Shown here one piece after another: positions 4,424-31,938 of a DNA stretch of 64,000 nucleotides (position 1 is its first letter; each line of letters opens with the position of its first letter). The DNA is from Botryllus schlosseri (taxonomy: Eukaryota): contig CM119371.1 in NCBI GenBank assembly GCA_051294905.1, forward strand, positions 26,228,001 through 26,292,000, in the 5' to 3' direction. Position numbers and translations under genes: made by a program. Under the pieces are notes generated by a model. That model had not been told where the DNA came from. It did not search any database and worked only from the letters and a program-made list of their open reading frames with translations.

Positions 4424-6618
4424 CTAAACATTAGAAGAGCTGTTCTCTGACGGTCGGCAGACAATACAGTCATCTAAACTAGAGATGCATTCCGAGCAGT
4501 ACGAGGGCGGGTGCGTGCAAGCTACAAACGATTCGTTAGCAGCCATCCGAGAACGGCATTGGATGCAGACATAGTTCTTCAGGTCCTCTTCATCCGGTTC
4601 ATTCAAGCTGCTGTGAAAGAGTTCATTTGATAATTAATTGATTATTCGATGGTAAAATAACATGTTAATTGAGAATGAATCCGATTATTAAATAACTAAG
4701 TTTAACGAGAAATCTGAAATAAACGGAACTAGAAATAACGCGAAGCCTCGAGTTATTGAATGTAGAATGAATCGCATTGGTGATCTTCACTGCATACCAC
4801 TGCTATCTAATTATTAGCTATGACGGTTTACTACGTTGCAATCTAGGCCATTATAGACGCCGGACACGGATAATTTCGTAACGGCGCCTAACAATAATCC
4901 AGAACAGTGGTTCTCAACCGCCGGTCCGCCAGGTATATTACAATTTTACACTTTGATTTCAAGATGCAATGTTGAAGGCTTGTCCATTGATAAAATAAAT
5001 AAAACATCAAATTTAAAACTGATTCACAACTTCGTGAGGCAACATTAGGGCTGGAAACATGTTCGATTTGACTTGAAGTTCAAGACGTTTTATTTGACGA
5101 CATTCGCGCGACAAGCAGAGAACAGATACGAACTCACTCATCGCTAAACAGCACATGCACTTTGATCATTGGATTTCGATTCATTCATTTTGTGCAGGAC
5201 CGTTACTGCATGGGGCACGCCAAACCGCTTAATTGGAGAGGGACCGAGCTCGAAAAGGGCCCAAAATTATTTCGCCATTGAACATAAATCAGCGTTTTTA
5301 TTTGAAACTTTTTTCAACATTTTTCAATTTCTTTGTGCGATTTGCACGAATTAGTGTGCCTAAACGTTTTACTTATTAGGTGCCCTTCTCCGAGAAATAC
5401 GCATGATTTATAGGCATTTCGGCGTCAACCATTACTGCGTCACGACGAACCAACACATAATGAAGTTTAGGTTAACATATGACTCCGAAAGGTGGACCAA
5501 AAATTCGGCCGCGAGAAAACCGCTTCAGTTGTGAATGATCGAAAATTTTCACCAGTGGCGCGATCAGTTAAGTTAACTCTCTGCTTACGCTGAGTAGAAT
5601 GGATGTGATCACAAGCACAGGTGAAATATCCCACAACTGTAGGTTCTGGGGGCGAATCCCCCGAAATTTGGGTTATCGCCCAGTGGGGGCCCCAAGACCA
5701 ACGTTTTTGGGGTGCGCTGAAGAAGTGCTTTTTCGGCCCGGATATGCGGATAGCCGGTATAGCTGCTGTGATGTGCTTTCTTGCGGCACGTATTGCATTC
5801 GTAGTTGGCAGTGTAGCCTTGGTCTGTTGGCAGTGGACAATGAGCAAGGTAGCACGACAAGATGCTTGGTTCGACTCCGATGCGCTTCTTCTCTCCATAT
5901 TATCAAAGAGAAGAATATTATTGGAGTTGGCGTGGTCACTTAATCCAACGGCCTTCGGCGCGAAAGACTGTAAACTCTCGTCGGTAGCACGTTTATCTGG
6001 CAAGGCAATTTTACCTCGACTCAGCTGACTTGCTACCATGAAATCACATCGATGCCATCATGAGTATAATTAAATACGATCAAAACCCTCTAAATGTCAC
6101 TCTCTAGCACCATATAATTGCAAAAAAACAGTTGGATACTTTACATTTTGGCGTCATTTCACTTTTGAAAGTTCACCGGTCCGCCAAACATTTTTTGAAA
6201 TTTTACCGGTCCGCGAGGCGAAAAAGGTTGAGAACCACTGATCCAGAACATTTCCTGAGATTAATAAGAAGCTTTTCTGAGCCGAAAAGTCAGTCAACAC
6301 CATACTACACTGTGGTATTTTACCAATCGGGAACACACCTGCATATTTCATAACATATATATCAACCTGGGTCATTTATAGCCACTGTGTCCATCACCTA
6401 ATTTCAATTAGATTTTAACATCTACAAAAGCCAATACTATTGGATACACGAGAGTTTTCCTGTGCGCATGCTTTGACAAAAGCCGGTATGGTTCCAAATA
6501 ATTGAACCAAATGTTACCTTTCTGCTGTAGCGTCGCTGCAAACCACCCCCAGGTTCAGCTCGCTCGACTTTGCACTATCACTCCGTGACTCCTGATAGTC
6601 AGCATTGTTTACTGACAT
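4424..6618 (-). CDS. 94-aa RING-finger-only protein, paralog A (coding exons 6618-6518 and 4607-4424)
   Basis: GT-AG phase-2 intron. Translation MSVNNADYQESRSDSAKSSELNLGVVCSDATAES-LNEPDEEDLKNYVCIQCRSRMAANESFVACTHPPSYCSECISSLDDCIVCRPSENSSSNV*; pattern Cx2C-x12-CxH-x4-Cx2C-x6-Cx2CR. Identical exon lengths (101+184 nt) in paralog B. Confidence 0.7.
4905..6240. mobile_element. non-autonomous hAT element in the intron of RING paralog A
   Basis: TIR CAGTGGTTCTCAACC / GGTTGAGAACCACTG; exact 8-bp TSD ATCCAGAA (4897-4904, 6241-6248). Confidence 0.85.
5195..5741 (-). mobile_element. internally deleted copy of the CAGG(G/A)CCGTAAC element family, nested
   Basis: Ends resemble the reverse complement of both ends of 24118-25438; TSD not recognisable. 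Confidence 0.5.
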
Positions 6619-9149
6619 TATGTAGGCTCTTGATATATACAGTCGAGCTGAAATCAACACTTTTAGATGGTATTGCTTTCCGTTTCAGTGCATGTGTGTG
6701 GACTTTATCTTGCGATGACCAGCGTGGATTCGGTTCTTAAGAGTTAGGTAATTTAGAGTTCCTCCTCTATAGAGAGAGATGGATAATTTATTCGGTTCCA
6801 TGAAAGTGAAAATATATAGATACATGAATACAAAGCAAAATATATATAATTCAATTCAGAACGAGGTTGTAGTGAAGGAATCGAGAGATAATCAAGTCAG
6901 CTAAAGCATGAAAGGCGGCTGGTTGTGATATCAAACTTTAAACAAAATATATCACAGTTCGCAATATATCATGCCAGCTATATGTGCCCCCTAGTACTGA
7001 AAAGGTTGATAACTATTTACCAAAGCCGCCCTGTTTACAAATACATTGGAAATCACCAGAAAATATCATCAAATATCGTGCGTCAGACGGTATCGTTCAT
7101 GAATTTAGTAACAAGAATAAGCTATAAAGTGTATCAGTACCATGGGTGTCAAACGTATGAATGAGCAATTGAGCATTTAAGCAATTGAGCATGGGCATGG
7201 GGACCTGCTTTCAAAGCTCTTGTATGCGTGGACCATATTGCCTATCTTCAAAGTTTAAACTGATGCTACGATACAAACGCTTTTATGGGAAAGTTAGTAC
7301 ATCAATTTTTGCTCATCTGCAAGTCGGTATTTAACTACTTTGTATATTACGGTTGCTCTATTTGTACAGATGTTGTGATGGCAAACGCATCCCAGCGCAT
7401 CATATGGACCGTGGTGGAAGCCCTATACGCCGATAGTGCAATTACAGCTCTATATTTTCAATTGCAATTCTCAAGTGTACAAAGTGGTGTCTTACAAAAA
7501 GCCTAGAAGTGGGCCGTGCTATCAGTCGGCAGTTACGAAATAAAAATGAAGAATATCAGCCTGGTGTAAATGACCAGAGTAGTCCAAAACACCATGAATA
7601 CCTCAAAAGAAGCACAAATAACTACAGTAATGTTATAGAACCCGAACTGAACCAACGACGTGACATCATGACTATAACAAATCCACTGTTCACTAAATAC
7701 ACAAATAGAAATCCCTTTATTGTGCACTCGTTCACGTAATATAGTTGGTAATTCGCGATACGTCTGATGGGGTGAATCGGACTGGCGAGAGTACGATGAC
7801 GATCATCACTCCAATAATTAATAATATATATCTCTGAGAATCTCCAGCGTTGCCTCAATCCTAGATAACATGTCCGCGATCTTCAGAGGGTAAATCATTG
7901 TGGATTCTGTCAGCTACCCGACGCCAAATTTACGTTACAGCTAACAGCATATCTCTATCAAATGAACAAATGCATTTGATTTTGCGAAATCGCCTCATAA
8001 GCAAGTACCTCGTAAACTTCACAATATACGGACTAATTTCAGACGCTTGGCACGATACCGATTTCCGTATCGTATTCCAAGCAGACTGATCAACGTTTAC
8101 TCTAGTTGTAGTTCATAAACATTATGCTAAAGAATCGCTGCGTATCAAACACTAGCGGACCACGGTCCGTCTCTTGGAAAATCATAAAGGAAATTACAAT
8201 TGATTTCGATTGGTTGTATTCGTGTTGCAAAAAAACTGTCAATTTCATTTCTCTGAGAGCCATAGGTTCCCTACCCTGATCTAGACAGTTAGATACCCGT
8301 AATTAAGTACTTCCCACATACCATGATGGAGTTGCTAATCTGAGTCCAGAATGTATGCTTTCGAGCTTTATACACGGCAAAGACTGTACAACGAGAGAGT
8401 GCTATTTAGGAGAAACCTACCCTAGTAACAGTTACAAAATATAGAATGTATACGTAGGCTACTATGTAAGTCGTCAAAACCCTGAGTAATCATAATATGG
8501 TAAATATGTACTTTGTTCAGTTGTGGATGGTTCATATGTTCCGATAAATTTTTTGCAAGGATCTGTTTGAACACGAACATGAAACGATCACATCGTGATG
8601 TCATCTTGTTAATTCCAACCCTACATTTCAGCGAAGTGGTATATTAATGTAGGCTACACAATACCTAGTGACAACTCGGGCCACACCATGACACAATGCT
8701 GAAGTACATGCTGAATTTTTAAACGCCATCAAATGTATAAACTGGAACAATCAATTACAATAATAATCCGATAAATGCATATTTTCCATTGCTTTGCCAA
8801 CAATTTCGACGGGGACTTGCAGGGGAATATAAGCTTACGCCTTAACGGTTTAAGTCAGACCGGACTATGTATTCGGCGTATAACTATTGATACATTGATA
8901 TTGAGCATAGTGTAAAACGGGTCTCTATACTTGGTACCGATATTACCCTATAAACAAGTTATACAGTAACCAACACCCAATTCGCCCAGATTTGGTTTTT
9001 ATGACACAATAAACATATCAAATAAAGATCGATCCCGCACGCCTGCTTGATTTTTTTTTACATCAGACAACAATGCATTTTTATACGTCTGGATGCACAT
9101 TGAATAATGCCAACTTCCACTACCGAATACGGAGGCTTAGACGCGTAAG

Positions 9150-9637
9150 GCTATGCAAAAATGTCCACTCCCGCTACACGAGATCCTCGTCCAAAGGAAA
9201 TATCTACTTACCCCTACCCAATAGCAACCTAACTAAGAGATCTATCGACTACTCGGGACCTATCATCTGGAATGCATTACCACGACAAATCCGTGAATTG
9301 CCTTATAATAGATTCAAAAAAGCCCTACTTGATCACCTCTTGTCGTTACACTAACACTGTTGCCCTACCTCGCCCAGGCATTGCTTCATTGATCATTTGC
9401 TACCATCGTTTAAGTTATCCTTTTTTTTTTAAAACTACCGTAACATTTTTTACAGCCAGACTGTTTAGAGTCTAGTGCACCTGTTTGATGCTGGTGTGAT
9501 TAGACTAGATGACCTTCACGGTCTTATCGATCATTCCTATCTATTACCGAATACTGTGCAAGCATATTTCTGTACCACCACCACTGCCGTGTGTTATGTA
9601 TTTTGGTTGGATGCAAATAAAGACTCTCTCTCTCTCT

Positions 9638-9686
<49 letters not shown>
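9150..9686 (+). mobile_element. 5'-truncated CR1-group (L2/Crack-like) LINE 3' end with (CT)n tail
   Basis: Peptide HSRYTRSSSKGNIYLP…KRSIDYSGPIIWNALP…FKKAL (stop at 9354) is typical of the C-terminal end of CR1/L2-group ORF2; 3'UTR ends AATAAAGA followed by a CT microsatellite. Confidence 0.7.
9624..9686. repeat. (CT)n microsatellite
   Basis: Seen directly; slightly interrupted. Confidence 0.95.
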
Positions 9687-9689
<3 letters not shown>

Positions 9690-9875
9690 GCATAGCCACG
9701 CAGATCGTCTAGCACGCGTGTGAGGAATGAGGATAATCATACCTCGACAAGTTTACTGGCAGCCACCCGCAGTTCAATTACATTTCCAACAAATCGAAAT
9801 AATAACAAAGTTATTAACTGATAAATTTGATCAACGTTACTTCTCAATTCTCATATTCGTCGCCTGTAACAAAAC

Positions 9876-10448
9876 GTTGTACTACAAGCATACATTTAAA
9901 CGGAAGTGCCTGCACGCTACCAAACAATCGCAATATGAATCGCTTTATTTGTAATTCGAATTTGTAAACGGGAATATCATTTCCAAAGGCGTTGCACTAC
10001 AAGCATACATTTAAACGGAAGTGCCGGCACGCTACCTAACAATCGCAATACGGATTGCTATATTTGTAATTCGAATTTGTAAACGAGAATATCATTTCCA
10101 AAGGCGTTGCACTACAAGCATACATTTAAACGGAAGTGCCGGCACGCTAAGTAACAATCGCAATATGGATTGATATATTTGTAATTCGAATTTGTAAACG
10201 AGAATATCATTTCCAAAGGCGTTGCACTACAAGCATACATTTAAACGGAAGTGCCGGCACGCTACCTAACAATCGCAATACGGATTGCTATATTTGTAAT
10301 TCGAATTTGTAAACGAGAATATCATTTCCAAAGGCGTTGCACTACAAGCATACATTTAAACGGAAGTGCCGGCACGCTAAGTAACAATCGCAATATGGAT
10401 TGATATATTTGTAATTCGAATTTGTAAACGAGAATATCGCTTCCAAAG
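9876..10448. repeat. 115-bp tandem repeat, ~5 copies
   Basis: ACTACAAGCATACATTTAAACGGAAGTGCC recurs at 9881, 9996, 10111, 10226, 10341. Confidence 0.95.
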
Positions 10449-10548
10449 AAAGTAATTTCTCGATGGTGATTGGGGAAACAATGAGGATTGGAAAACTGTA
10501 TTGTCATACAGGCGCCGCCAAGTCTGCCTTCTTTGCCATCACTTAACG

Positions 10549-11592
10549 CAGGGTTCACCAACCCGGTGCCCGCGGGCACCAGGTAGCCCGCGAGGACTAG
10601 ATGAGTAGCCCGCGATCCCATTCTAAAAATAGGTGGAATAGCAGCATTTACCAATATTCGTCAGATTATTACCAGTGAGCTTTTAAATATATAGATTGTT
10701 TGATTCAGCTATTCTTGTTTAAAACACACTAACATGTGGATAAACACTTGAAAATATCTTCAATTACAATTAGTAATATAGATGTATGTGATGGAATCAC
10801 CAGAAATTCAAGATACGGCGCATTGCCTACACAGGTGGCATGACGGAATGCCGTCCACGGTCTTCTTGAAATGGTGGGGGGTTCCGTTACGATAGCTCGA
10901 CGACCAGGACAATGCCAAAGTAGTAACCAATATTACTATTCGGACTCAGATAGCCGTGAAGTACTAGCAGATTTTCAGTAACTGTATACCCATTACGTAT
11001 TGCATCTTTTGGCACAGCTTGTTTCTGTTACACTAAACGCAGTTTAATGTACCATGTTTCTAACTTTCTGTAATCGTTGCTGCTGTCCGGTATAATGAAA
11101 TCTTGTCATTTCTGGATGCTGAACATTAGGAGATTGAAATTGTAACACTGCAAAATGACCCCCACCTCACTGTGCAGAAAATGTTCGGTGCCTTGTTGAT
11201 ACGGAAAACTACAGTAGTGTATGCGCAGCAATTATGAAGGTTGCAAGCGTCTATTGTTCGACTTATCGTTGTGAATCAGCCTTTTCGGACATGAACTTCA
11301 TCAAAAACATACACAAAACACGCTTAATTATTGCACATCTGGAACACTAACTTAGAATCGCAGCGTCAAGTTAAATACCAGTGTACAACGCACTAGTTGA
11401 TATCATACAATGCCAGGCTTCCCACTGACTGCTATAGAAACAGATAACATGATGTCCAGTCCTGCCCAGTGCTATGAATATCAAAGCGGAAATTCAGTGT
11501 GGTACGGGTAAACGGCGGGAGTAAATAGTCGTTCGCCGCTTCAATCATTACGCAAAAGTAGCCCTCGGTTGCAAAAAGGTTGGTGACCCCTG
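10549..11592 (+). mobile_element. deleted hAT (Buster/Charlie-like) transposon with C-terminal transposase remnant
   Basis: TIRs CAGGGTTCACCAACC / GGTTGGTGACCCCTG; flanks ACTTAACG / AATTAACG; 11258-11428 translates STYRCESAFSDMNFIKN…*LRIAASS*IPVYNALVDIIQCQASH*, the hAT dimerisation-domain end typical of GTF2IRD2/EPM2AIP1-like transposases. Confidence 0.8.
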
Positions 11593-12081
11593 AATTAACG
11601 TATTGTGCAAAACTGAATTCATCCTTCAGGGAACGCGATATGTCGGGTAAAGCGATTTCGCGGGCATGTTGATTGCGGGCATAACATCAATTTTGATTTG
11701 TCAAATGTGCAAACTTCACATTGAGCACGATTTAGATTATTTATTGATCATTTGCTTTAGACTAGAATTATTTTGCGCATAATTTTGAAATTTGGAAAAA
11801 ATCGCTCGCGGCACACTTTCGACATGTAAATGGCACACTAGTGTGCCGCGGCACACCGGTTGGGAACCACTGCCATACGTCCTCTTGTCATATTTTTTGA
11901 CATTTTTGAAACTGTCCTCGGAGGACGCCCAAATGTCCTCTTTTTAGGAATGTGTCCTTTTTTAAATATCGGTTAAATGTAGCCTATGTTAAAATTCAAC
12001 TGGGATAAAGAAAATTAGTACTCGAGTCACGTTCCGGCGGGTCTTTCGGGAGTTGAATCAGAATGTTGACCTTGTTCGCTC

Positions 12082-13089
12082 CGGATCCGGAGCCCAGGTG
12101 GTGAAAATGCAGAACGGTTCAGAAACCGAAAAGGTTACTTTTCCATAAACTGCCAGGTCAATATCATAACCGTGGTTTATAATGATATATATCGGCAGCA
12201 CTTGCACTAAAATAATTATAATTTATAATTCGTATAGGGTATGATAGGAACATTCGTTACCTCTACCGCAACCTTAACCCAATCATAAATGCCATAAATT
12301 TTGACGTATTCATGGGGAACACTGCCTAGTGATAGTCAATTGATCATGCTGTTGCTGATAAGTAATTACACTGACCCCCCCATATTATGTTGCTGCCTTG
12401 ATGATAATGCAAATATTCCTAGCTAACAAAACATGAAGTTACACCATACAATTTGGTTTGGGTGTTTGTTGTGATTTAAAAATAACTATTTAATGATTTT
12501 TTTTGTCCAGTGATGCAAGTGATATATAGAATAGTAATTCACAATACTAATACATACATTCATGTTTCAGGCTGTATGTGATGCAAGACTCGTCTTTACG
12601 AACATTTATGCAAAATGGTACGGTTCGACACATGATGCAAGGATATTCCATAATTCTGCATTATATGGTTATCTGGAAAGCCAGTCGACCTCAAATGGAC
12701 TGTTGCTTGGCGACCAAGGCTACCCATTGACTACTTATCTAATGACACCGTTACGCAATCCTTTGCGTGAGCCTGAGCTGTGTTACAACAGAAGCCACAA
12801 AAAGATCAGATTGACAATCGAACGCGCGTTTGGTGTTTTGAAGCGAGTATTTTCCTGCCTGAAAACAGGCATGAGGTTAAAAGTCGACACAACTTTGAAC
12901 GTGATTCCAGCCTGCGTCTGCATGTACAACTTTCTCAGGCAACGTGGCATGATCGAGGCATCACTTGATGAATTTACAGATGATGGAATGGATCCTAGTG
13001 ATTCTACACCACAAGGCCAGCGTACAGACTACGCACAAGCTTCTGCGATCCGTCCGCAGCTGATAAGATTGCACTTTTCATCTGCGTAG
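12082..13089 (+). pseudogene. PIF/Harbinger DDE nuclease (HARBI1-like), 5'-truncated; exon remnant 12082-12156 and exon 12571-13089
   Basis: RIRSPGGENAERFRNRKGYFSINCQ | AVCDARLVFTNIYAKWYGSTHDARIF…LLGDQGYP…IERAFGVLKR; phase-0 GT-AG intron; N-terminal part with the first catalytic Asp not found. Confidence 0.85.
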
Positions 13090-14176
13090 AACCGAATGTG
13101 ATGTGGTGCAGTTGCAAATGATAAGATAACTTGTATAGTTTTTGACTAGATGTTTCCTAAAAAACAATTTCCATTGTCCAATCTCCCTAACATAAGCAAA
13201 AATAACCCTTCAAATTGGATTAATTTTGGAAAGTTTATTCCGTTACCATGATACAATGGCTATTTGACATGGTTCTTATCTTACTACTGAAATACATATT
13301 GACAAGTTACTACTAGTAAATATACCTTGTCACAATTCTACAGATTGTTTGCTATTGCTGATTTAAATGGTACCTGCAGTGGAATGAATAATACTAGATG
13401 TCTGAAGCACTCTTTTATTGAGCAGCAGCCCAGCACAAAGAAACTTTATTGAGTGGCAGAACAAAGAAACATAAGCAAGCACAGTATAATCAGCATGACA
13501 TTGGTAATGAGTAGGGCAATATATCCAACATGTCAATATTGTCACGTTGAGCCAAAATGATGTCGAAATTTTTTGCAACCTGCATTCGTTTCACCTGCGC
13601 TCTCGGTGAACTTATTGACATTTTACAGCTTGTGTAGCCCCTACCGTTTTAGACGGTCTATTGTGAATCATAAACGCCAAATGCAACAAATTTTAGGTTG
13701 ATGTGGTGTTACACTCAACATACTGCAGTATCTTAAGTGAAGCAGAAGCAGTCGTTTTTAGGTAAAAAAATCGCTCTAGTAATGAGACATTTTAGCAGTA
13801 GCAAAGAACCACAGTACAAAAATATATTAGGCAATTAGCCCTTTGCAGCACAGTATTGGAATACAAACGTATTATCGCTCTGGAATCGAACGTGTCTAAT
13901 TTTCTTTGGTCATATCTTGACCATGTTCATGTTAGAAACAACGTGACACACACAAATAGACATGGTCATGGTCATGGCCATGATGTTATCAAAAGAGAAT
14001 AAAAATCTTACAAAAATGGCCAATAGCTACTTTGATTCCACAGCGGCGATATGGATCCAATTCTATTGCACTAAAGAAAATATATTAAATCACAAAAGAA
14101 CAGTGCTGGCTAAAACGAAATAATGAAGCTGTTAGGAACGAGCATTACGACTCTTCAAAATATCTATTAATCACGT

Positions 14177-15724
14177 CTACTTTTTGATGGAACGCTGTTC
14201 GAGTTCCATTTCTGCCAATTTCAGCTTTTTGTTTAGGAGCTCTATCTGTTTTTTTAGTTTGATTGCTTGCAATCTGTACAGCTCATTCCGGGATTCAGAC
14301 TCCTGAGCAAGTTTCCTCTTTCCAGAACAGGTTGGTTTAGGAGGTGCAGATATCGACGTATCATCTGAAAAGATACCAATATGTCTTGTTCTGTTGCAGT
14401 GTTGGGATGACTCAAGTCAGCATTGAAAATCGATTGACTTGACTCGAGTCAAAATCTGCAATGACTCGTGACTCGAAGGTAGTGACTTGATCCCAACACT
14501 GTTCTGTTGAGCCTAGGACATATTCAGCAGGAGTAGTCGGCTCCTTTTACCACCTACTCTATCTCAGACAAAAAATACCTTACCTGCTGTCGTTTTGAGA
14601 GGTCGTTTTTCCGGAGTAGATGCATACGTCCTCAAAGATTTTGAACAGACGGGATGCCTGCTTGGTGCAGATAGTACAGAGTCATCGACTATATTGGATG
14701 GAGATGACACCGATACCAGTGTGTACATTTCCTCTGAAATCAAGCAGTACATACTAAGTGACACGACACATACTTTCTATGAGATATACAGATAAACCAG
14801 TTAATATATTTCTGTTGTGTAAAATAGGTTATCAAATTCGTATGGACTACGCAGAGGTGTAAGAAGCATTTATGAGTTTGAATTTATACATGCAGTTGGC
14901 GTATTCTCAAAGCCTTAATGCAATAGAACGGCGTGACCAGCATGTTTGTGTTGAAACGTATACAGGCCTATTTCTGCTTGTAGCTCTGGATTGCACTTAT
15001 GAAATAGTACAATAATTGTGTTGAGAACGCATAATACCCAACATTGAGACAATTTTTACAAACCTTGCTCTGTACTTCCAACGATCCCACCAGATTATGG
15101 AAGAGTTGCGCTTTCAGTGTCCAATTGAGAGTCTGTGATTATGGGATTGAAGTGCGCTGGCTCCATTGCGAGCAGCTGGAAATACAATTGCAATAATCAA
15201 AATGGGAATCAATTTTCTTCAGTGAGAAACAACAACATGAGCAAACCAAATGAATTGTCTATCAATTCTCTGCGCGTGAATCACAAAATTCATGCAGCAA
15301 TAATATATTCCGATTTCAATTCAAGATTGAGATATGTTTCAATGTTCACTGATGCCAATGTACACCGAAGAGTGGCAAAAGAAGTAGGCCTACAAACCTG
15401 CTGCGAAATTGGAGTTAATTCTTTATCCTTGAAGGATCCACCACCGGTCTTCACATTTTATTTGCGGATAAATGTCATTTCTTTTCCCACCTTTGCCTTC
15501 AGGTTCTTATATAGAGCTCTTAGCTTCATCCAATTGTCAATTTGCCGTGTATGGCTGTCCATATTAAACTCAACCTGAATCTTTGTCCAGGCCAACGCCT
15601 TGGAATTGTTTGTAAATTTATTTGTTGATTTGTCCTTTAATATAGGCCACTTTTCCACCAAATTCAGCAAAAACTCTTTTTCATACTCTGAATAGTTTGT
15701 CCTCTTTTCAACACTTGAATCCAT
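14177..15724 (-). pseudogene. Harbinger Myb/SANT-like DNA-binding gene, 4 exons (15724-15398, 15175-15064, 14733-14584, 14364-14177)
   Basis: MDSSVEKRTNYSEYEKEFLLNLV…AWTKIQVEFN…KLRALYKNLK…*NVKTGGG; phase-compatible GT-AG junctions; C-terminal coiled-coil-like ELYRLQAIKLKKQIELL…; two in-frame stops and one frameshift. Confidence 0.75.
14397..14501. mobile_element. 105-bp hAT-type MITE in the Myb-gene intron
   Basis: TIR CAGTGTTGGGAT / ATCCCAACACTG; exact TSD TTCTGTTG; miniature relative of 17622-18556. Confidence 0.85.
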
Positions 15725-16164
15725 ATTTATAATCTTGTGGCTATGAACTAGAGAACTAAGAAAAATAGCTAATCGTTAAAAAGTAATAGCTTCACCACAG
15801 CAAGGTTTACACCGCCGTCAGTTTTGTAACAATAGCAGATTCAGTACCGTAACTCAAAATTTATTGCAAGATTACGATTTATTGATCGCTAGACATCATA
15901 TGCTTCCTTTAGTAAACCTGAACTTTTCCTTAGGTACACGAATACATACTGCAAAACAGCCTTGAAATATTCCAAAATTTGGCACCCTACTGTACGTCCG
16001 GACAACCATCGAAATGGAATGTATTACCTGAGCTATCTATAGTGACATGCTCCTTTTGTTGTTCTATAAGATGGGCCAGGTATGACCGATCATTGATGCT
16101 GAAAATCACCGTGAAAACACGAACCGCTCGCGTAACGATAAATTCATGTACCGGTATCGCAAAT

Positions 16165-19100
16165 GGGCAATTCCCCGCACAGACAACCGATGTTCCCACC
16201 ACTACCTCTCCAAATATTATGAAATTTGGTACACGCACAGATGAGCTAATTCCAAACAGGATGAACTTTATTTTATGAAAATTGGACTTGGGGGTCAAAA
16301 GTTACGTCACTTTGAAAATTGACAATTTTCTGCTCATTTCGGGTCTGCACTTTCGGGTTTTATCAATGCAATATTCAAGAAGGTGTAGCTAGATGTTAGA
16401 CGACAGTTGAGATACGGTACTTGGATTTATCTGAAGCTTGTCTGATCGTCTATATTTTCAAGTAAAATTTAATGCCCTGTAGGTTAGGGCCAAAGGTTAA
16501 ATTGAGGGGGAATTTGGTCAATGGTCTAAAATCAGTCAGGCGTTACGCGATTTAGACTGCGGATTGCTCAAAAACATATTAAAATATTTTGGAAAATAGG
16601 ATCTTAAATGAAAGTTTGCTTCAAGGAGACTTCGTTCATAGCAGTTTGATTTTGGCTATTAGACTGTAAAGTGATGAAATTGCAGTTTCAAGAGCACACT
16701 TCATTTGCACACGGAAATGCAGTAGTAGAAGGGTGCGTTCGGACATCGAGTCTGGGGTGTGTGTGGACATCATGTCTGGGATGTGTTCCGCCATCATGTC
16801 TTGGGTGTGTTCGGACTGTGTTGCCATTGAAACGTAGTGTCTGGGGTGAGTTCGGACTTTTTTCCCCTCGGACATCGTGTCTGGGATGGGTTCAGACAGT
16901 TTTGCAACTCGGACATCGGGCCGAGGGTGTGTTCGGAATGTGTTGCCATTCGGACATCGTGTCTAGGGCGTGTTCGGACATCATGTCAGGGGTGTGTTGC
17001 TACTCGGGCATCGTGTCTGGGGGGGCTCGGACATCATGCCGGGAGTGTGTTAGGATTGTGTTGTCAATTGCACATCGTGTCTGGATATTTTTGTGCTGCG
17101 CCAGATATGCCTCAGACCTGATATCTGGGCACAATTCTTATCCAGACATGCTCCGGAGCTGATGCCTGCGTACTAAATACCTTCAGGCATTGTCCGAAAC
17201 GGATATCTGCTCACTTAGTGGACACAGACATACGTCAGACGTGATACCCGCGTACTAAACGACGCGTGACCTATATACGACCTCTTTATTTGCGGTTTTT
17301 GCTTATATCTGCGAGAGCTGGGTATATTCACAGTAGTGATAGCTGAGTATATCCACATCCACAGTAGTGATAGCTGAGTATATCCACATCCACAGTAGTG
17401 ATAGCTGAGTATATCCACAGCTGTCACTACTCTGGATATAGGCCTACTCACCTCAACTATCACAGATATCACTACTGCGGATGTGGAAATACTCAGCTAT
17501 CGCTACAGTGGATATACTCAGCTATTGCAGATATCAACAAAAACCGCCAATATAGAGGTCATAGGTCTAACGTCGTTTAGGACGCGGGCATCACGTCCGA
17601 CGCATGTCTATGTCTATTAAGCAATGTTGGGATCAAGTCACTACCTTCGAGTCACGAGTCATCTCGAGTCATTGTACATTTTGACTCGAGTCAAGTCAAG
17701 TCAATCGATTTTCGAAGGTGACTCGAGTCAAGTCAAGTCACTCGTTTTTTGGAGGTGACTCGAGTCAAGTCGAGTCAAGTCAAGTCAAGTCACGAGTCAA
17801 GTCACAATTCAAGTCAAATTGAATTTTCGAAGTATGAGTGATGATTCAAAGTCATTACATTTTGCTAGCTGTGTTAATGACAGATTGGTTGCTGATATCG
17901 CTTGAATCAAATAACGGGTGTCAAGTTAAATATACATGCAAAAAGGCGTTGTATCACTCACGAACTCTTAGAGCTGCTAAAATGGAGGATCTAATACGAA
18001 GCGCCGAGAAGTTGAAACAAATTAATATGGTACAATACGCTACCCATCAACACATCCGTGAGATTATAAACGCATAAACTATATTCGTTCGATTCAAATC
18101 ATACTAGGGGGTTGCCTAAACAGGGCACTTCGCGATGTAAGCACTGAGCCATCTAACAAACAGAGATACGTAGTTATTAGATTATTCTACAGCTACTACA
18201 TAAACGTAAGCTGTGATCATTTCGTTTTCGGTCAATATATTTGTGATGTAACAATCGAGGAACAGGGAAAAGTACAATCTGTGAATGACTGCTTGCTCTC
18301 ACAAGTCACACCGGCGTATCGCGAACAATCCGAACATCAAAGAGATGCAGCGATTTAATTGACACCGTTTACTAGATGACTTGAAATTGACTCGTAAATT
18401 TTGCTCCGAGTCAAGAGTCAATCCTCATTTCTGAAGCGCCGAGTCAAGTCAAGTCAAGTCATTTTTGCAAAGTGACTCGAGTCAAGTCAAGTCATGCGAA
18501 AAAGTTGACTCGAGTCTGACTCGAGTCAAGTCATGACTCGAGTCATCCCAACACTGCTATTAAGTGCGCAGATATCCGGTTCGGACCCTGCCTGGGGGTA
18601 TTTAGCACACAGGTATCAGCTCCGGAGCATGTCCGGATAAAAATAGTGCGCAGATATCAGGTCTGAGGTGTTCGAATTGTTTTGCAACTCGGGCATCGTG
18701 TCTTGGAGGTGTTCAGATATTATGTCTTGGGTGTGTTCGGACTGTTTCGCAACGCGGACATCGTATCTGGGGGGCATTCGGATTGAGCTGTCACTCGGAC
18801 ATCGTGTCTGGAAGGTGTTCGGGCATCATGCCTGTGGTGTGTCCGGACTGTGTTGTTACTCAGACATCGTGTGTGGGATATGTTTGTGATGCGCCAAACA
18901 TGCCTCAGACCTGATATCTGCCACTATTTTAATCTGGACAGTGGACATGCGTCGTAGCTCTAACCTGCGCACCAAATACCCCCAGGCATATTCCGAATCT
19001 GATATCTGCGGGCTTAAGGGATACATACATGCGTCAGACGTGATACCCGCGTCCTAAACGACATTTGACCAATATATGACCTCTATATTTGCGGTTTTTG

Positions 19101-20394
19101 CTGATATCTGCGATTGCTGGGTATATGTATAGCAGTGATAGCTGAGTATATCCTTATCCACAGTAGTGATGTCAGTGATAGCTGAGTATATCCACAGTAG
19201 TGATAGCTGTGGATGTACTCAGCTATCACTACTGTAAATTTGGATATACTCAGCTACCACTATACTGTGGATATACCTAGCTATCGCAGATATCAGCAAA
19301 AACGCGTCGTTTAGGACGCGGGCATCACGCCTGACGCATGTATGTGTCCAGATATCCGTTTCGGACAATGCCTGAAGGTATTTAGTGCGCAGGCATCAGC
19401 TCCGGAGCACGTCTGGATAAAAATAGTGCGCAGATATCAGGTCTGAGGCATGTCTGGCGCAGCACAAACATATCCCAGACACCATGTCCGATTGACAACA
19501 CAATCCTAACACACTCCAGGCATGATGTCCGAGCCCCCCCAGACACGATGCCCGAGTAGCAACACACCCCTGACATGATGTCCGAACACGCCCTAGACAC
19601 GATGTCCGAATGGCAACACATTCCGAACACACCCTCGGCCCGATGTCCGAGTTGCAAAACTGTCTGAACCCACCCCAGACACGATGTCCGAGGGGAAAAA
19701 AGTCCGAACTCACCCCAGACACTACGTTTCAATGGCAACACAGTCCGAACACACCCAAGACATGATGGCGGAACACATCCCAGACATGATGTCCACACAC
19801 ACCCCAGACTCGATGTCCGAACGCACCCTTCTACTACTGCATTTCCGTGTGCAAATGAAGTGTGCTCTTGAAACTGCAATTTCATCACTTTACAGTCTAA
19901 TAGCCAAAATCAAACAGCTATGAACGAAGTCTCCTTGAAGCAAACTTTCATTTAAGATCCTATTTTCAAAAATATTTTGATATGTTTTTGAGCAATCCGC
20001 AGTCTAAATCGTGTAACGCCTGACTGATTTTATACCATTGACCAAATTCCCCCTCAATTTAACCTTTGGCCCTAACCTACAGGGCATTAAATTTTACTTG
20101 GAAATATAGACGATCAGACAAGCTTCAGATAAATCCAAGTGCCGTATCTCAACTGTCGTCTAACCTCTAGCTACACCTTCTTGAATATTGCATTGATAAA
20201 ACCTGAAAGTGCAGACCCGAAATGAGCAGAAAATTGTCAATTTTCAAAGTGACGTAACTTTTGACCCCCAAGTCCAATTTTCATAAAATAAAGTTAATCC
20301 TGTTTGGAATTAGCTCATCTGTGCGTGTACCAAATTTCAGGAGATTTGGAGAGGTAGTGGTGGGAACACCGGTTGTCTGTGCAGGGAATTGCCC
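16165..20394. mobile_element. foldback non-autonomous DNA transposon with ~1045-bp inverted arms (Sola2-like termini)
   Basis: 16165-17209 is a close reverse complement of 19349-20394; termini GGGCAATTCC…GGAATTGCCC; 4-bp flanks AAAT on both sides; no transposase ORF. Confidence 0.8.
17622..18556. mobile_element. non-autonomous hAT-type element with GACTCGAGTCAAGTC subterminal repeats, nested in the foldback
   Basis: TIR CAATGTTGGGAT / ATCCCAACACTG; exact TSD CTATTAAG (17614-17621, 18557-18564). Confidence 0.85.
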
Positions 20395-21656
20395 AAATAT
20401 GACCAAGATATATGACGCAAATACGCGAATTACATGTAATGCGAGTATTGAGTAGACGACGAATTACATTTTTTTCGTAATACCAACCGGAGTTTACTGT
20501 AGGCCGAGTTTCTATCCGAGTATTACGCAATTTTTGAATTAATCCTTGTTTTCGTAATACGGCCATAGGATTCCGACTAGATTGGGCGGTGAGTCATACC
20601 TATAGAAGTAAATTTGACTTGTGACTCGGTCACAACCCTGAATATATGCAGGATCCACCGTTCCTCGTGATCTTCCTAGCATATAAGTATCCCGCTAATA
20701 GATGTGTGTTCATCATACACTGCAAAACGTTTTAAATCACCACTGCATCGACCACACACCCAAGATTATTTCATGATTGCATTTAGTCACAGGAAAACAC
20801 ACAATAATTATGAGGTGACCTTTCCGCATCAGAAACTCTAAAAACGATAAATAAATAGGTATCTCAATGTAAACGAAATTAACACAGGATCACACTGCGG
20901 ACAGTGGCAGAGCAAAAGTACTGAACGAGACAAAATATTATTTGCTGAACTGAGAGGAAATCGGCAATAATATAGCAAACAATAGATAAATGCAAGTTAC
21001 CAACCGCATGCGTTGATTTGAAAGTGTGAAACTGTGTTTCATTGTTTCTGTAAAATATATGTACAGCGAAGCTAATGCCCGGATATAACAGGACTAAGGG
21101 TATACAAAAGGGCAATTTCAGTGCATCTTTAGCAAACCCATGACCTTCCCTTTCAATTCTAGGGACCGAAATGAAACTAAACGAATGCTGGGAAAATTGG
21201 TACCAGAGTTTTTTGATTCAGAGTCAAGTATTGGGCATTGATTTAGAGTCGTGTATTCGAGCACCACACACGATTACTTCATAGCCGTAACACGACTTGG
21301 AAAGTTCAAGTATGTATAAATATTGAGGCCACAAGGAAAACCGTGTCAGGTACACTTTATCCAATTTGGTTTTGTATATCTTGACTATGGCTAGCGCTTT
21401 GGCACCGTATGTAAGGGTCAATATTATTGATCGACAGAATAAAGGGTTCCATGAATATTCGTAGCCTTGTGCAGCAAGTTCGTCGACGCTGAATTACGCC
21501 CGAGGTGTCGAGGCTCCAACGGTCGGGAATAGAACGTTGGAACTACATTTCCCGTGCCGAAGTCGTATATTTTCGTTTCTCGTAAAGATCCACTCACACT
21601 GTTCGACTCGAATAGTTGTGATCAGCCCTATTACCGAGTACCATACTAATGCGAAG

Positions 21657-24600
21657 TTAAACATCATGAGATGTGCCCGCAGTCGGCCTGCAGACAATGC
21701 AGTCTTCTAAAGTTGCAATGCACTCGGAGCAGTACGCTGGCGGGTGCGTGCAAGCTACGAATGATTCGTTCGTGGCCATCCGTGAGCGACATTTGATGCA
21801 AACATAGTTTTTACGGTCCTCCTCCTCCGATTCGTTGAATCTGGCGTAAAAGAGATGATTTGATGTTGACGAATCGCGATGATACTGTTTCTAATTATGT
21901 TTTATATGAACTCGATTAAATAATGCGAAATTGGATAAATTTTTACGTCCCATTAATCAACATAAAGCTTCCCGCGCATCTGACGAGGCAATACGAATCA
22001 TGCACTGTAATGATAAATATTTAGAAAGCGGATCCGACTCATACATGGATGTCGAAAAATAAATATGGACACTAATCTGGTCGCAGGCGAATCGACAGCC
22101 AACATCTTTTTCGGTACGTATGTACTGATACATTTACTGTCAGACGTCTTGATGAGTGGTTCCCAACCGGACATCATTTCTTCACTATGGAGTAAAGGAG
22201 CCCGTCAGAGAAGTAATTTCATTAAAAAAAAACTTTTAAAATATCTCACATTGAAAAATGTAGCTTCTTCAGATCCGTGGGAAATATTTAGCACGTGTGA
22301 CTGTGATTAAGGTTATTTCAAGTCGTATAATTGCGACTTCGACAGGAGTGTTAGTTTTGATAAGCCACACTAAAAAATGACATAACGGATAATAATTTTC
22401 GTAGACCGCCGGCTGTGCGGTCGATCGTAAGTGCACAAGCAAACCTATAGCTTTACTGGTTTCTACTTAAATCTAGGTGGATTGTAGAGAAACCAATTTA
22501 ATTGAAATGCCAGGATTCATAAAATTCGGGACTCCTTTTTTAATTTTCAGTAATATAGGTATGAAGCCATCATTTCAAGGCCGGTCTGACCATCTGAGCA
22601 AATGGAGGAGCGTGACGAAAATGGACGAGAACCACCAAACGGGATTCATCAATACTACAGCGGTTTTAAAAGGACAATAAAACCATTATCGGTGCTCTCT
22701 CAGATTCGAGAATACAACATAGTTTACTTTAATATAACAGTCGTGCGAATGTGGAAAGAAACAACTCTTAGAACGCACTATCCACATACTGTATCACTGA
22801 CAGTCAATGTAAAAAATGTATTGCGAATCAGAGATTGTCAGTAACTAAGTATTTCCATATTTTTTGAAGTACCCAAGTAGGCTCTGCCTTCATCCACTAC
22901 TCCCTTTCTTTATATTACTTCCACTTCTACGGAACGTTTTCTTACGAAAAACTATTTACTTTCAGAACTTTGGATTTTGTATAGTAGAATCTACTTGGGG
23001 ATATTTTGCATAATGTTTGTAAACGATACTGCCTTAACACTTTGACTGCCAACAATCCTAAATTTGGTATTCTACTCAATTCCATAAAGTGCCGGCGATC
23101 CTATATTTAGGATATTTTTGAAATGCGTACAGTAAAGTCCGGGGTAGGCTCTATATCAGTGGTTCGCAACCTTTTTCGGTGGCAGGGCCAAATTTAGAAT
23201 TACTGAGTACGGTCGGGGCCGCACGAATACCAGGGCAATGAAAGGAACCCAAAATAGTCACCAAAACATGAAAATTGGCATCGTTCCGATTGTTCGCTTG
23301 ACGCCCTTGGCCGTTGTGTTGCCGCGCTCCCGTTGTTCAGAACAATCAACCTTTGGTGATTATTTCGGAGTAGTTTTATTGCCCTGGCAAGATTTCAATT
23401 CTTATTATTGGAATCAGTGCGACACTTTCTTTCGATAAACACCGACATATCAAATTATTCGGACGCTCGGGTCGCGAGTAGGGCTGGGCACAATGATTCG
23501 AGTACTCGAATCTGAATCGAGTATTAATTTTAATGATTCGAGTCGAGTAGTAAAAGACGATTTTTTCGAGTAGTGGAATTATGCGCTTCTCGCCACTGAA
23601 GGTTAATTTGTCAACGAGCATTATAGTTTCGATACTAATTTTCACTGTTGAAGCCTTGGAACCTTGTTTGGTGGTATCGTAGCATACAAAACATATGGTA
23701 CAAAGCTACGAGGTTGCTTGACGTATAGTACATTTCCGGAGTCATGATTATCCCACAACATTGTCACCAAGTGGAATGAAATCAATATGGTCACAAAAAT
23801 ACCCCAAAGTATCAGTTATGAGGTGGATAACAGGCATTATATTCTTTGTGGTGGCATTAACGATACATATTTGGACTTTGACATATTACATTCTGTTATG
23901 ACGTCACTATGGGTGATACTCGATTACTCGACTCGACTCGAAGCATATTACGTGATTCAGAATCGAATCACTCAAGTACTCGATTTTGCCCAGCCCTAGT
24001 CGCGAGCTATAGGACTACCAATTATGTTGCTTTTTGCCGGCTAAGCAGTACGCATCTCGGCTTATTCCATCGTGAGTCACTTGTTGCACATCTATCGGTG
24101 AATTAGTTATCAATACCCAGGGCCGTAACAGCACTTTGTCAATCCCCTCCAAAACGTTGCTCTTGGGCCCCCCATAGGGTGATAAACCGAACTTCGAAGC
24201 CCTACAGACCCCCATCAGGCTAGAGGCTGTTTATCGCTATTTATCAACTAAATCGGGTGTCCGTTTTAGGCAGCTACTCTCGACTAATTGCGCCAAGCGC
24301 GAAAAATTTCTATAATTCATGATTGAATCGGTCAATATAATCGGGAATTGGATATTAGTATTAATATTTATCCTCTCTCTGCTCACGTAATCAGATTGAC
24401 AGGTTGAGCAGAGTGAGTTGTGTTTGAAAAGGTAGGACCCCTCAATATTAATTAAACATATTCGGGCGTATTCCCGTTGGCAGGAACGAAACAGCACTTC
24501 GTCAGGCCCCCCAAAACACTTAGGTCTTGAGCTCCCATAGGGTGACAAACCGACCCCCCGTCTCGTTGTTCGCTTCTGCCACGAAATCAGGATCACCTTT

Positions 24601-26608
24601 TAGTGAGCCAGAGTGAAGCGCGAAAATTTTCGATAATTCAAAATAAAATAGGTCAATAAAACCGGGAATTGCATATATATTGCTATCAATTACTTGTCCT
24701 CTCTGCTTACGTAATCAGATTTACCGGTAGACCTGAGCGAGGTGTCTTGGAAACTGTAGGGCCCGTAAATAATAAATAAATATATTCGGACGGGCGGACC
24801 CCGTTGGTACCACTTCGTTACATGTTATTTCGTGACCTCCAGTCTGCTATATCAAAAAATATAGAATCGCCCAAACGTACTAAACTAAAAGATGCACACG
24901 ATTTCAAATTGGTAGTTCTTCACTGGCATATAATTCTTCCCTGCGAGATGGTAGCCTAGTTGTCTCGTGAGGTTCAGATTGCCAAGACAGAAACATTCGA
25001 CGCCAGTCATTTAGGCGCCTATGGTCAATTATACCTATATGTATTTTGCATATACATAACGAAGTTTTCGGTCAGCGTAAGGGCAGTCCTTTTCGGTCAA
25101 GGTTTTCTCGCTGCTGATCGTTCTGGCACAGTTCTTGGAGTCGCATGTTACATGGCCTAAAACTTTATATGTGTTCGTGCGTCGTGGCGCGGTATTGGCC
25201 AACGCCGATATGCCTACTTCTATAGATCTTGCGAATTTATTCTTGGTGGAAGAGTACCCAATAGTTAAGGTACCTGGAAACTTGAAATCGCATGCAGCGC
25301 GAAAATTTTTTGAAAAAGTCGCAAAAAATTTCATAAAATACTCTATAATTTATGCTAATTCACTAAATAATTTTGGGCCACCTTCGAGCTCGCTCCCCCC
25401 CCCAATTGGGGGCTTGGGGTGCGGCAGTTACGGTCCTGTCAATACCTATATCTATAGGTACTGCTCGTTCAACTGGAAAGTTAGGGCACATCGCTTGAAA
25501 CAGCAGAGACGTAATTTTAGCAGTCTACTCACAACTTTCCTGCAATCCTAATTGAAAACTCCAGACTCCAAGCCAAGCAAGAGTATTTTATAAATATGAT
25601 TTTTTTTTTCATAAATCGATTTCTCAATATTTTTGTGGGGGCCGCAAGAAGGCTAGCTGGATGCCGCATGCGGCCCTCGGGGCCGCGGTTTGGAATCACT
25701 GCTCTATATCCCCGGATTGCAGCTATATCCGAGGCTACTCAATAGGCTTATTGTCATAAACCACCATTTTCGTTGCCGAAAGTATTTTTTTTAAATCACA
25801 TCTGCATACAATAGGTTAACCATTTTTTTGGTTTGATCACTAGGTGGATTTTCATAAAATGAGCAGCTAAAAAATCGAATTATTTTTATAATTCCTTAAT
25901 ATTGACAAAAATATTTTTTTTCATAACTTGTACAAGGTTTACACTTATCAGCACGCCCGATTCCAGCCAAATATCCAACTACTCGAAAACTCATTGTTTG
26001 CTGGAGTTTACTGGCAATTTCCATAATAGGCCTTGGTACCTAAAGTGTTAATAACAAATTGAAATAGCCTCTGTGTTGGGCCTACTGAATATGATTGCAA
26101 ACATCGTACCTGCTTGTAGTTTCACGAGTCATTGTGATTTAGCCGTGAAACTACATCTTACAATTGAGTCGTCTCCGATTAATTAAGGTTTGTTACACCT
26201 CAACGAAATCTGCTTTGAGACTAGTACTTTTTAAACATTCCACTTTCCCCTTACACCTCTTGAAACTTTGTTCTTTTGGCATTATTTCTTGAAAATTTTC
26301 GCATTATTTATACATGAGTACCACCGCCTAGTATTTTGGCCACCTCTGTTAACCGCATACCATACTGAAATTCAATGTCACAACATTACCGCGCGATTTC
26401 GTATCTAAGTTAAATAAACAGCATTCCTGAAATCATAGCATGGCATGAAATAAGGGGGTTGCTGGACACAGAACTGTATAGTACCATTAAAACAGTGCAA
26501 ATGTTACCTTTCTGCTGTAGAGTCGCTGGAAACCGCCGCAAATTTCAGCTCGCTAGACTCCGTACCCCCACTGCGTGATTCCCGACTGCCATCACAGTTC
26601 ATTGACAT
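21657..26608 (-). CDS. 94-aa RING-finger-only protein, paralog B (coding exons 26608-26508 and 21840-21657)
   Basis: MSMNCDGSRESRSGGTESSELKFAAVSSDSTAER-FNESEEEDRKNYVCIKCRSRMATNESFVACTHPPAYCSECIATLEDCIVCRPTAGTSHDV*; same splice sites and phase as paralog A, all 8 metal ligands kept. Not in the ORF track. Confidence 0.7.
23479..23998 (+). mobile_element. TAGGGCTGGGCA MITE nested in the composite element
   Basis: TIR TAGGGCTGGGCA / TGCCCAGCCCTA; exact TSD GTCGCGAG; empty site present in copy 2 at 58271-58278. Confidence 0.9.
24118..25438 (+). mobile_element. CAGG(G/A)CCGTAAC non-autonomous element nested in the composite element
   Basis: TIR CAGGGCCGTAAC / GTTACGGTCCTG; exact TSD TCAATACC; free-standing homolog at 50002-51237. 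Confidence 0.85.
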
Positions 26609-26950
26609 GCTGTATAGGCTGCTGGAACACACGGTCGAACTGAAATTCCACCGTTGAAAGAGAATCCTGCGATTTTAGACGAGTCTTGGTGACAGAATAA
26701 TTATCTCCACTTCGTCCAACGATGATTCGGTTATCGGACGCCGGCGTATCTTGTGTTATCAGCAATGCATCAATTCCTCATCTGCCGGTGCTTAGCCAGC
26801 AGCTAACTGATTGATAACTATCTTCTAGTGTAGCGTTGGCTGCCTGTGCGTGGAAAGTCACTTTAAAATTGCGTAAACACCGTACCGTCAGGCGTCAGTA
26901 AGTTTTTACGACGTGAACTTTGGTAACTCACACAAGCCGTCAACTTTGAC

Positions 26951-30878: not shown

Positions 30879-31938
30879 CCCATATAGAAATACCAACTAG
30901 CAATCGTGCGCTCACCACGAAAGAAATATGTTTCCAATATATACCGAAAACCCTGATGAGAAGATAAGAAATAACAGCATCCAACTAATGACATTACTAC
31001 CGGTAATAACAATTGGCTCACCCGAAGATGCATCATCATTTATAACTTGCCCTAAATGTTCGAAAACACTCCCACATCTCTACCGGTGAATCAGATCACA
31101 GGAACTGAGATACGATAAATTTTTGATTTAAGATGTGAAACCAATGATATCAATGATAAAATTCTTTTGTAAATCTGAAAATCTTTCGCGCAAAGCGCGA
31201 CCACAACGGACCCCAGTTTCTATTCATATTATAATCACTCGCGATTTCGGTGCATATAGTAAGCCGATATGTAAAAGTAAATTATTCCGGAGCTCAGCAG
31301 AAATGGACATGGATAGTTTACCAGGGGTATTGTATTCGGCGTCCAGTTAGTTTGTTATGGCTATATGTCCTGAAATGCGGCCGTGGGCTACATAAGTAAT
31401 CGAACTGCAGCCGTGAATAGCAAAAAGTTTGACCACCCCTGGTCTAGCACGATGACGAAAGCTTGACCGCAAACTAGCAAACTTACATTAGGCATTGAGA
31501 ATTATTTTCACCGATACGACGTCATAATTACAAAAAATGACAAAAGCCATACATGAATTAGTACATGATTTTTTTGATCCGAGGACATATGAGCACGCGA
31601 CACGACACGTGGGCATGCTGCTTAAATCTGGAGGCAAGGTTCGCTGCATGCCCGTGTGGTGGCGTGCAGCCAGCATAGAACCGCTTGATTTATCAATTCG
31701 TTATACTGCGGCATATATCTGTAGCATTCGTAGCTTGCATATATATATTTGTAGTCGTGATTAGTCGTCACCGCGTGCGGACGTCTTCAGTAGCGGAGAG
31801 ATTTGAGGTCGCGCGTATCTTGTTGGACTCCTATAGTTACGGTAAGACTGTTCTATATTGTACATACGGGGTAGCATAGTTATCTATATAGGTAGGCTAA
31901 TAGGCTTAGCCCTATTATTCTGCGGTTTCATAGTGGTC

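Follow-up and report, generated by a model that had tools for sequence, protein, structure and literature searches.

Tandem genes for small RING-only proteins in Botryllus schlosseri: structure, conservation and proposed role

Do two short spliced loci in the genome of Botryllus schlosseri, each holding a RING domain and little else, represent genuine free-standing genes, and what could their products do? The loci, here called gene A and gene B, lie on the minus strand of a 64,000-nt stretch of DNA (assembly GCA_051294905.1, contig CM119371.1, positions 26,228,001 to 26,292,000; hereafter the window, in whose numbering coordinates are given unless stated otherwise). The original prediction described them as a duplicated pair of genes for 94-residue RING proteins, of a type that dimerises, and proposed that they act as minimal ubiquitin ligases (E3) or as modulators of larger ones. 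Our own reading, held with reasonable rather than firm confidence, is that A and B are real, free-standing genes for RING proteins of about 94-95 residues, which would act as weak or partner-dependent minimal E3 ligases, or as modulators that bind the ubiquitin-conjugating enzyme (E2), and not as self-sufficient dimers.

Paired loci, their family and the constraint on their exons

Each locus consists of a short first coding exon and a second one that carries the RING, with conserved blocks on either side of the coding sequence, the 3′ one in the untranslated region (UTR).

6619-6654, minus strand: gene A, conserved block 5′ of the ATG; ATTTCAG followed by CTCGACTGT, then a 29-nt spacer
6518-6618, minus strand: gene A, coding exon 1; ATG at 6618-6616, 101 nt, phase-2 end before the GT at 6517-6516
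4611-6517, minus strand: gene A, intron of 1907 nt, GT..AG, in the version of the one RNA contig
4608-6517, minus strand: gene A, intron as originally predicted, using the second AG of a CAG/CAG tandem acceptor
4424-4610, minus strand: gene A, coding part of exon 2; acidic stretch, entire RING, stop TAG at 4426-4424
4406-4421, minus strand: gene A, conserved 16-nt block of the 3′UTR, from the A-B alignment and a genome-wide exact match
26609-26646, minus strand: gene B, conserved upstream block; ATTTCAG followed by TTCGACCGT, 31-nt spacer to the ATG
26508-26608, minus strand: gene B, coding exon 1; ATG at 26608-26606, 101 nt
21841-26507, minus strand: gene B, putative intron of 4667 nt, GT..AG, placed from the sequence
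21657-21840, minus strand: gene B, coding part of exon 2; 184 nt, RING, stop TAA at 21659-21657
21639-21654, minus strand: gene B, conserved 16-nt block of the 3′UTR, from the A-B alignment and a genome-wide exact match
4893-6252, no strand assigned: insertion in the intron of gene A resembling a miniature inverted-repeat transposable element (MITE), whose terminal inverted repeats of 27 nt occupy 4893-4919 and 6226-6252

The exon sizes, the phase-2 intron and the eight zinc ligands predicted for both loci were reproduced, coordinates and frames alike: gene A, read as 6618-6518 joined to 4607-4424, and gene B, 26608-26508 joined to 21840-21657, each add up to 101 + 184 = 285 nt, or 94 codons and a stop. 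The donor AAAG/GTAACA (the slash marking the exon boundary) is common to both, and all eight C3HC4 ligands stand in both frames in the pattern Cx2C-x12-CxH-x4-Cx2C-x6-Cx2C, followed by Arg. Comparisons by tblastn within the window gave 73% identity between the two exon-2 peptides (E 5.5e-29) and 52% between those of exon 1 (E 2.4e-5), and the best unrelated match after these reaches E 0.046, so that the likeness of A and B is more than chance would give. Self-blastn aligned both exon 2 (4398-4631 with 21631-21864, 234 nt, 78.6%) and exon 1 (6508-6654 with 26498-26646, 150 nt, 76%), with DNA similarity limited to the exons and flanks of 25-38 nt; it found no mutual alignment between the introns, which measure 1.9 kb in A and 4.7 kb in B, the latter carrying repeats also found at 50-60 kb of the window. 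Introns that do not align beside exons that do point to an old duplication with conserved exons. The short block that the two loci were said to share in the 3′UTR is likewise borne out: its 16-mer, which begins 3 nt past the stop, has exact copies at A and B only in the whole 495-Mb genome. An Rfam search of the window gave no match.

The read evidence, which covers positions 3950-23949, supports one half of the junction proposed for A. Runs were chosen by species label, besides one that matched 4050-4640 at a share of 0.08 and whose RNA nature was guessed. A 196-nt contig of run X1 (depth 3.2) covers 4483-4610 and continues at 6518, spanning 6518-6585 of exon 1; the joint 4610->6518 skips 1907 nt, and its CT..AC on the plus strand is GT..AG for gene A. 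The predicted donor at 6518 is spliced in this contig, whereas the acceptor is 4610 instead of 4607: the AG used is the first of the CAG/CAG tandem (4611/4610), 3 nt upstream, which brings in one extra Ser and gives an exon 2 of 187 nt (184 nt from the predicted acceptor) and a product of 95 residues. At the homologous site, B and the third copy, C, described below, have a single AG. Run X1 holds a second GT..AG joint, 12153->12568, in a transposase region, which fits an RNA origin of the run. Downstream of B, 190-620 nt past its stop, the same run has a contig at 21034-21470 (437 nt, depth 6.5, 13 differing letters), which could be part of B's 3′UTR or an unrelated transcript.

Although A and B form a duplicated pair within the window, as predicted, genome-wide they do not stand alone. 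In the 495.5 Mb and 219 contigs searched, the RING exon of A matches six loci (A to F). Copy C (G000:C1:26202985-26206965, minus strand) lies on the contig and strand of A and B, about 27.6 kb beyond A, and is built in the same way: its first exon measures 101 nt, its phase-2 intron about 3.7 kb and its RING exon 187 nt. The remaining three RING exons form a second cluster at G000:C7:6005077-6031456 (loci L012, L013 and L014 for D, E and F). Of these, F is degenerate, with two ligands lost and a stop just upstream; the RING exons of D and E are intact, follow a phase-2 acceptor and end in C-P-F-C-E. Neither blastn nor tblastn of the minus-strand open pieces between the copies revealed an exon 1 for D or E. 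A genome search with two of the foreign homologues described below returned the same six loci, followed by weak generic RINGs at E >= 0.008. From their sequences, A, B and C are three tandem, same-strand, two-exon genes, and the C7 cluster is more divergent.

The Pfam family zf-C3HC4_3 (PF13920) has at least 135 matches in this genome, many of them in tandem clusters, and the A-F family is a small divergent offshoot of this hugely expanded domain. Such clusters occur, for example, at C3:16.1-17.6 Mb, C3:29.8-30.0 Mb and C12:7.16-7.55 Mb. There are also many scattered open frames of about 581-583 residues that end in a zf-C3HC4_3-type RING (on C10, C2, C3, C5 and others), and these look like a multi-copy intronless gene or a mobile element.

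Selection on the two exons was estimated from Nei-Gojobori counts as omega, the ratio of nonsynonymous to synonymous divergence (dN/dS), the exon-2 stretch running from KNY to the end. Rather than approaching 1, omega for exon 2 lies at 0.10-0.17, at a dS of 0.4-1.0, in all four paralogue pairs: 0.137 for A-B (Fisher p 1.7e-6, dS 0.97), 0.154 for A-C (dS 0.80), 0.169 for B-C (p 3e-4, dS 0.42) and 0.101 for D-E. For the RING core alone, A-B gives 0.054 at a dS of ~1.2. The RING exon is under strong purifying selection, and since omega is so far below 1, we infer that the RING is translated. Exon 1 has omega values of 0.88, 1.74 and 1.26 in the A/B/C pairs, with dS of 0.34, 0.20 and 0.14, exon-2 dS in these pairs (0.97, 0.80, 0.42) being two to four times higher. 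The N-terminus had been described as diverged beside a conserved RING; its fast change (omega 0.9-1.7) agrees with this, but the low exon-1 dS misfits plain relaxation. Free amino-acid change with slow silent change could possibly reflect nucleotide-level constraint near the start, or possibly gene conversion of the 5′ part. Between B and C, the 80 non-coding nt upstream are conserved to the same degree as exon 1.

Outside the genome, relatives are few. When 1.84 billion representatives were searched with a profile built from the five intact RING exons, five matches came up, of which three were kept as homologues, all unnamed singletons known from Logan assemblies alone: P0003 (119 aa, E 1.8e-28), P0004 (86 aa, E 3.5e-15) and P0005 (93 aa, E 5.1e-11). 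The other two, P0006 (516 aa) and P0007 (986 aa), were rejected as internally repetitive, partial profile matches without the ligand pattern. With the 8-sequence alignment as query, the same three Logan proteins were the only relatives among 720 candidates, and a near-length protein search with the exon-2 peptide of A found no homologue. The prediction of an undescribed family agrees with these results in that neither a named relative nor a longer, fused form was found. Open-access literature searches yielded no description of such a RING-only family, which is not proof of absence, and in a 2026 IAP survey (PMC13159474) the terms searched led to no passage on RING-only forms. As far as these comparisons go, A and B are members of a small, unnamed, lineage-restricted RING family, unannotated in the sources searched; a very common domain has undergone an unremarkable, lineage-specific expansion here. 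For annotation, the case illustrates that short two-exon genes of this kind escape tracks based on open reading frames (ORFs).

Class of the RING and its proposed role

The Pfam assignment, the PDB sequence matches and the fold matches agree with the original proposal of a RING of IAP/Mind-bomb/MDM2 type. zf-C3HC4_3 is the best Pfam family for all eight members, and D (30.0 bits), E (30.4) and P0003 (29.2) score over its gathering cut-off of 27 bits, with P0005 at 26.0. Aligned by hhalign, the family profile matched a profile of 23 canonical RING exons of its own genome (93.7%, E 1.8e-7); this canonical set was reduced from 30 loci to 29 exons and then to 23, near-duplicates and two irregular ligand patterns being dropped. 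The eight ligand columns are invariant in 31 of 31 sequences, family and canonical exons together, and in a tree a 100/100 branch with a very long stem sets the eight family rows apart. The best PDB sequence matches are BIRC7 and cIAP1 (E 0.011), then cIAP2, XIAP and MYLIP (to E 0.6). AlphaFold2 gave a first model with a predicted local distance difference test score (pLDDT) of 49, which became 67 with the 31-sequence alignment; its best fold matches, with weak scores, are IDOL, MDM2-MDMX, MEX-3C, MIB1 and BIRC7, and a Foldseek search with the pLDDT 67 model returned no row at E <= 0.001, the first eleven rows being IDOL and XIAP RINGs. By these similarities, the RING of the A/B family is of the zf-C3HC4_3 (IAP/IDOL/MDM2) class.

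What this class does is best described for cIAP1, in which Arg606, right after the last Cys (Cys605), is reported as the linchpin that locks the E2-ubiquitin conjugate (E2~Ub), and in whose RING dimer a tail Phe is given in trans to the donor ubiquitin; that study extends the use of the tail in trans to BIRC7, RNF4 and MDM2-MDMX (PMC6349121). The identity of the linchpin residue tunes activity, according to a further report (PMC12326332). A, B and C have Arg right after the last Cys (C-I-V-C-R), the cationic linchpin position, and their first Cys is followed by Ile (C-I-x-C). In the tails of A, B, C, D and E, past the last ligand, there is no Phe, Tyr or Trp, whereas [YF]-x forms the end of 22 of the 23 canonical exons. 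The expectation that A and B dimerise because their RING type does so is weakened accordingly, as the Phe/Tyr tail is lacking from all five intact copies and present in 22/23 canonical ones. The gap between the His and the fifth ligand also differs, being x4 in A and B and x3 in the 23 canonical exons. No BIR domain was found in the 94-95-residue products or in 96 other scanned frames of at least 75 residues (of 134 listed, most of those outside the BIR scan overlapping scanned frames), and a Pfam scan of open frames found no BIR or other ligase domain near A or B.

The product would thus be built of a fast-evolving, Ser- and acid-rich N-terminal stretch from exon 1, followed by an acidic run and a C-terminal RING from exon 2. 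This RING would bind two zinc ions in a cross-brace and may dock E2~ubiquitin through the Ile of C-I-x-C and the Arg at the linchpin position. Since it has neither a substrate-binding domain nor a Phe/Tyr tail, the product most likely acts either as a minimal E3 that is weak or depends on a partner, or as a modulator that binds E2 and influences the genome's very large canonical RING repertoire, and a self-sufficient, tail-swapped dimeric ligase seems unlikely. A RING-only protein without a substrate domain or a trans tail, set among at least 135 RING exons, would be a natural candidate for a ligase regulator, and if A and B are translated, few proteins centred on an IAP-class RING would be smaller. 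A more specific version of this idea, which we consider doubtful, is that they serve as RING decoys or co-factors, pairing with more than 135 canonical IAP-class RING ligase exons or competing with them for E2~ubiquitin, and so tuning a massively expanded repertoire. If this were true, the genome would encode a 'micro-MDMX' layer of regulation, the tuned ligase repertoire would probably be immune- or apoptosis-related, and the fast-evolving N-terminal peptide would set the partner or the substrate.

Counter-evidence and rival explanations

Several results weigh against free-standing, E2-binding RING genes. zf-C3HC4_3 is the best family for A and B but scores A at 18.4, B at 17.5 and C at 18.3 bits, under the 27-bit cut-off. 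The linchpin Arg is not family-wide, its place being taken by Glu in D and E, Ala in P0004 and Thr in P0005, and the usual Pro of C-P-x-C is Ile in A, B and C. RNA support consists of one low-depth contig, from a run whose RNA nature was guessed, and this contig disagrees with the window sequence at 8 of 128 letters, so that its source may be a divergent allele or strain, or a sister taxon. Three bulk RNA runs (6, 6 and 13 in 100 read) have depth 0 over 3950-4616, where exon 2 of A lies, and the bin holding exon 2 of B reaches a depth of ~0.65 in one bulk run alone; expression is low or restricted in these bulk RNA samples. Exon 1, at omega values of 0.88, 1.74 and 1.26, is without protein-level constraint. 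Beyond the RING, BLASTP of P0004 against the exon-1 peptide of B gave no alignment, and the N-terminus of P0005 has no significant similarity to exon 1 of the family.

Some of these features would suit an unlikely, though not negligible, alternative, in which A and B are real small zinc-finger proteins whose RING does not work with an E2 and instead serves as a scaffold module, as in arenavirus Z or PML-type RINGs. The x4 gap in place of x3, Ile for Pro in A, B and C, a linchpin that varies across the family and the missing aromatic tail are all in keeping with such a role, as are the language-model neighbours, which in the ESM Atlas are generic small RING clusters at 0.86-0.91 that include small viral RINGs and arenavirus Z (lead-level only). 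A, B and C nevertheless retain the Ile of C-I-x-C as well as the Arg at the linchpin position, and their closest neighbours, in sequence and in fold, are RINGs of active E3 ligases.

That the two exons are instead the 3′ end of larger genes, with upstream coding exons spliced into TTTCAG and an internal ATG, we consider improbable. In its favour, an acceptor-like ATTTCAG is kept in A, B and C as part of a conserved block upstream of the ATG (ATTTCAG/YTCGACYGT), with no in-frame stop from there to the ATG in 3/3, and the 5′ end of the A transcript lies beyond the contig, which stops at 6585. The spacers from TTTCAG to the ATG, however, measure 29 (A), 31 (B) and 33 nt (C), the first two as originally given. 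They cover all three phases and would demand three upstream phases, so a conserved upstream coding exon is unlikely. The 101 nt of exon 1 contain no indel, and frame 0 is the sole open frame common to the three copies; upstream, the nearest genomic in-frame stops lie at -69 (A), -69 (B) and -162 (C), without an ATG in between. As exon 2 has no in-frame ATG before the first ligand, translation must start upstream of it, and the exon-1 ATG, which occupies one aligned position in the three copies, each having A at -3, is likely the real start, in line with the prediction. The conserved upstream block may be a splice acceptor with 5′UTR or, equally, an initiator-like start site (TCAGTT in B and C). 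A TATATAT located 16-22 nt before the ATG of A was rejected as a promoter, being too near the ATG and absent in B and C.

Protein sizes speak against larger genes as well. The minus-strand ORFs of at least 75 residues near A and B are without a Pfam domain, bar a transposon-type Myb; the homologues measure 86-119 residues, and a search of 6660 longer candidates turned up no protein with the family RING, a result that the search tool itself rates as weak evidence. The alignment of P0004 with A, B and C runs over its full length, starting at the Met, and the score of its N-terminus against exon 1 was reached by 5/2000 shuffles for B, 4/2000 for C and 66/2000 for A. P0003, the longest of the homologues, is collinear with a genomic open frame that runs through the D/E acceptor, and is probably an unspliced ORF call. 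As proof of a longer N-terminus it was rejected: E has a stop in the read-through stretch, and D is without a Met.

A and B could also be decaying or untranslated duplicates, the exon relics of a former RING ligase gene. The lack of reads on exon 2 of A in the three bulk RNA runs, the clearly degenerate copy F and the neutral-like exon 1 at the protein level would fit such a history, but omega of 0.10-0.17 at dS 0.4-1.0 in 4/4 pairs does not, nor does the fact that A, B and C all retain the ATG, the frame, the splice sites and the position of the stop, nor the one spliced contig, and we regard this explanation as very improbable. Least credible of all is an origin as transposon-carried genes or by recent viral derivation: the region is transposon-rich, small RING proteins are common in large DNA viruses and the nearest Atlas clusters are unnamed Nucleocytoviricota proteins, but the copies share exons and 25-38 nt only, without shared terminal repeats, they have spliceosomal introns and only six copies in the genome, and a viral_contigs scan matched a pattern at 58 stretches, none encoding a relative.

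The window as a whole is eukaryotic and transposon-rich. A long interspersed nuclear element (LINE, a non-LTR retrotransposon) occupies 31846-37093 on the plus strand, with three consecutive frames of 505, 656 and 606 residues and endonuclease, reverse transcriptase and RNase H domains. A Harbinger/PIF-like element at 12153-15775 has a DDE_Tnp_4 frame (12538-13089, plus strand) and a Myb_DNA-bind_5 frame (15461-15775, minus strand), and the MITE-like element in the intron of A (4893-6252) shows several variant joints in run X1. An inverted duplication (16164-17267 against 20395-19302, 96% over 1.1 kb) encloses short tandem repeats; the highest RNA depth within 3950-23949 is found at 17290-18623, and the region 16164-20395 is probably an expressed repeat family. 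A tandem array of five 115-nt units with 95% identity lies at 9875-10448, next to a stretch of (CT)n at 9624-9686. Leucine-rich repeats (LRR_8) are encoded by open frames at 41715-42077 and 43133-43420, plus strand, which are probably exons of a plus-strand LRR gene.

Comparison with known RING systems

With the RINGs of the IAP proteins BIRC7, cIAP1, cIAP2 and XIAP, the A/B family shares the C3HC4 order and the extreme C-terminal position of the domain; the first Cys is likewise followed by a hydrophobic residue and, in A, B and C, the last Cys by Arg. It differs from IAP proteins in having no BIR, UBA or CARD domain. Compared with their RINGs, its own has one residue more between the His and the fifth ligand; A, B and C further have an additional residue in loop 1, and Ile for Pro in C-P-x-C. 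cIAP1, BIRC7, RNF4 and MDM2-MDMX use a tail Phe/Tyr in trans (PMC6349121), and the A/B family tail has none. IDOL/MYLIP, to which the fold matches point with weak scores and a model of middling confidence, has a FERM substrate-binding domain that is absent in the A/B family.

In size, the family resembles RBX1/RBX2, APC11 and arenavirus Z, proteins of about 85-115 residues that likewise contain little besides a RING; RBX2/SAG and Z are named as small RING proteins in the literature. These proteins, however, belong to RING-H2 or other classes and serve cullin/APC scaffolds or virus budding, and no sequence relation of the A/B family to RBX1/RBX2, APC11 or Z was found, the Atlas score of 0.86 to the Z cluster being below the lead threshold. 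For the kind of role proposed here for a RING-only protein, MDMX (MDM4) offers a parallel, by analogy only: its RING falls in this class, and it is a poor ligase by itself but works as part of a RING-RING heterodimer with MDM2.

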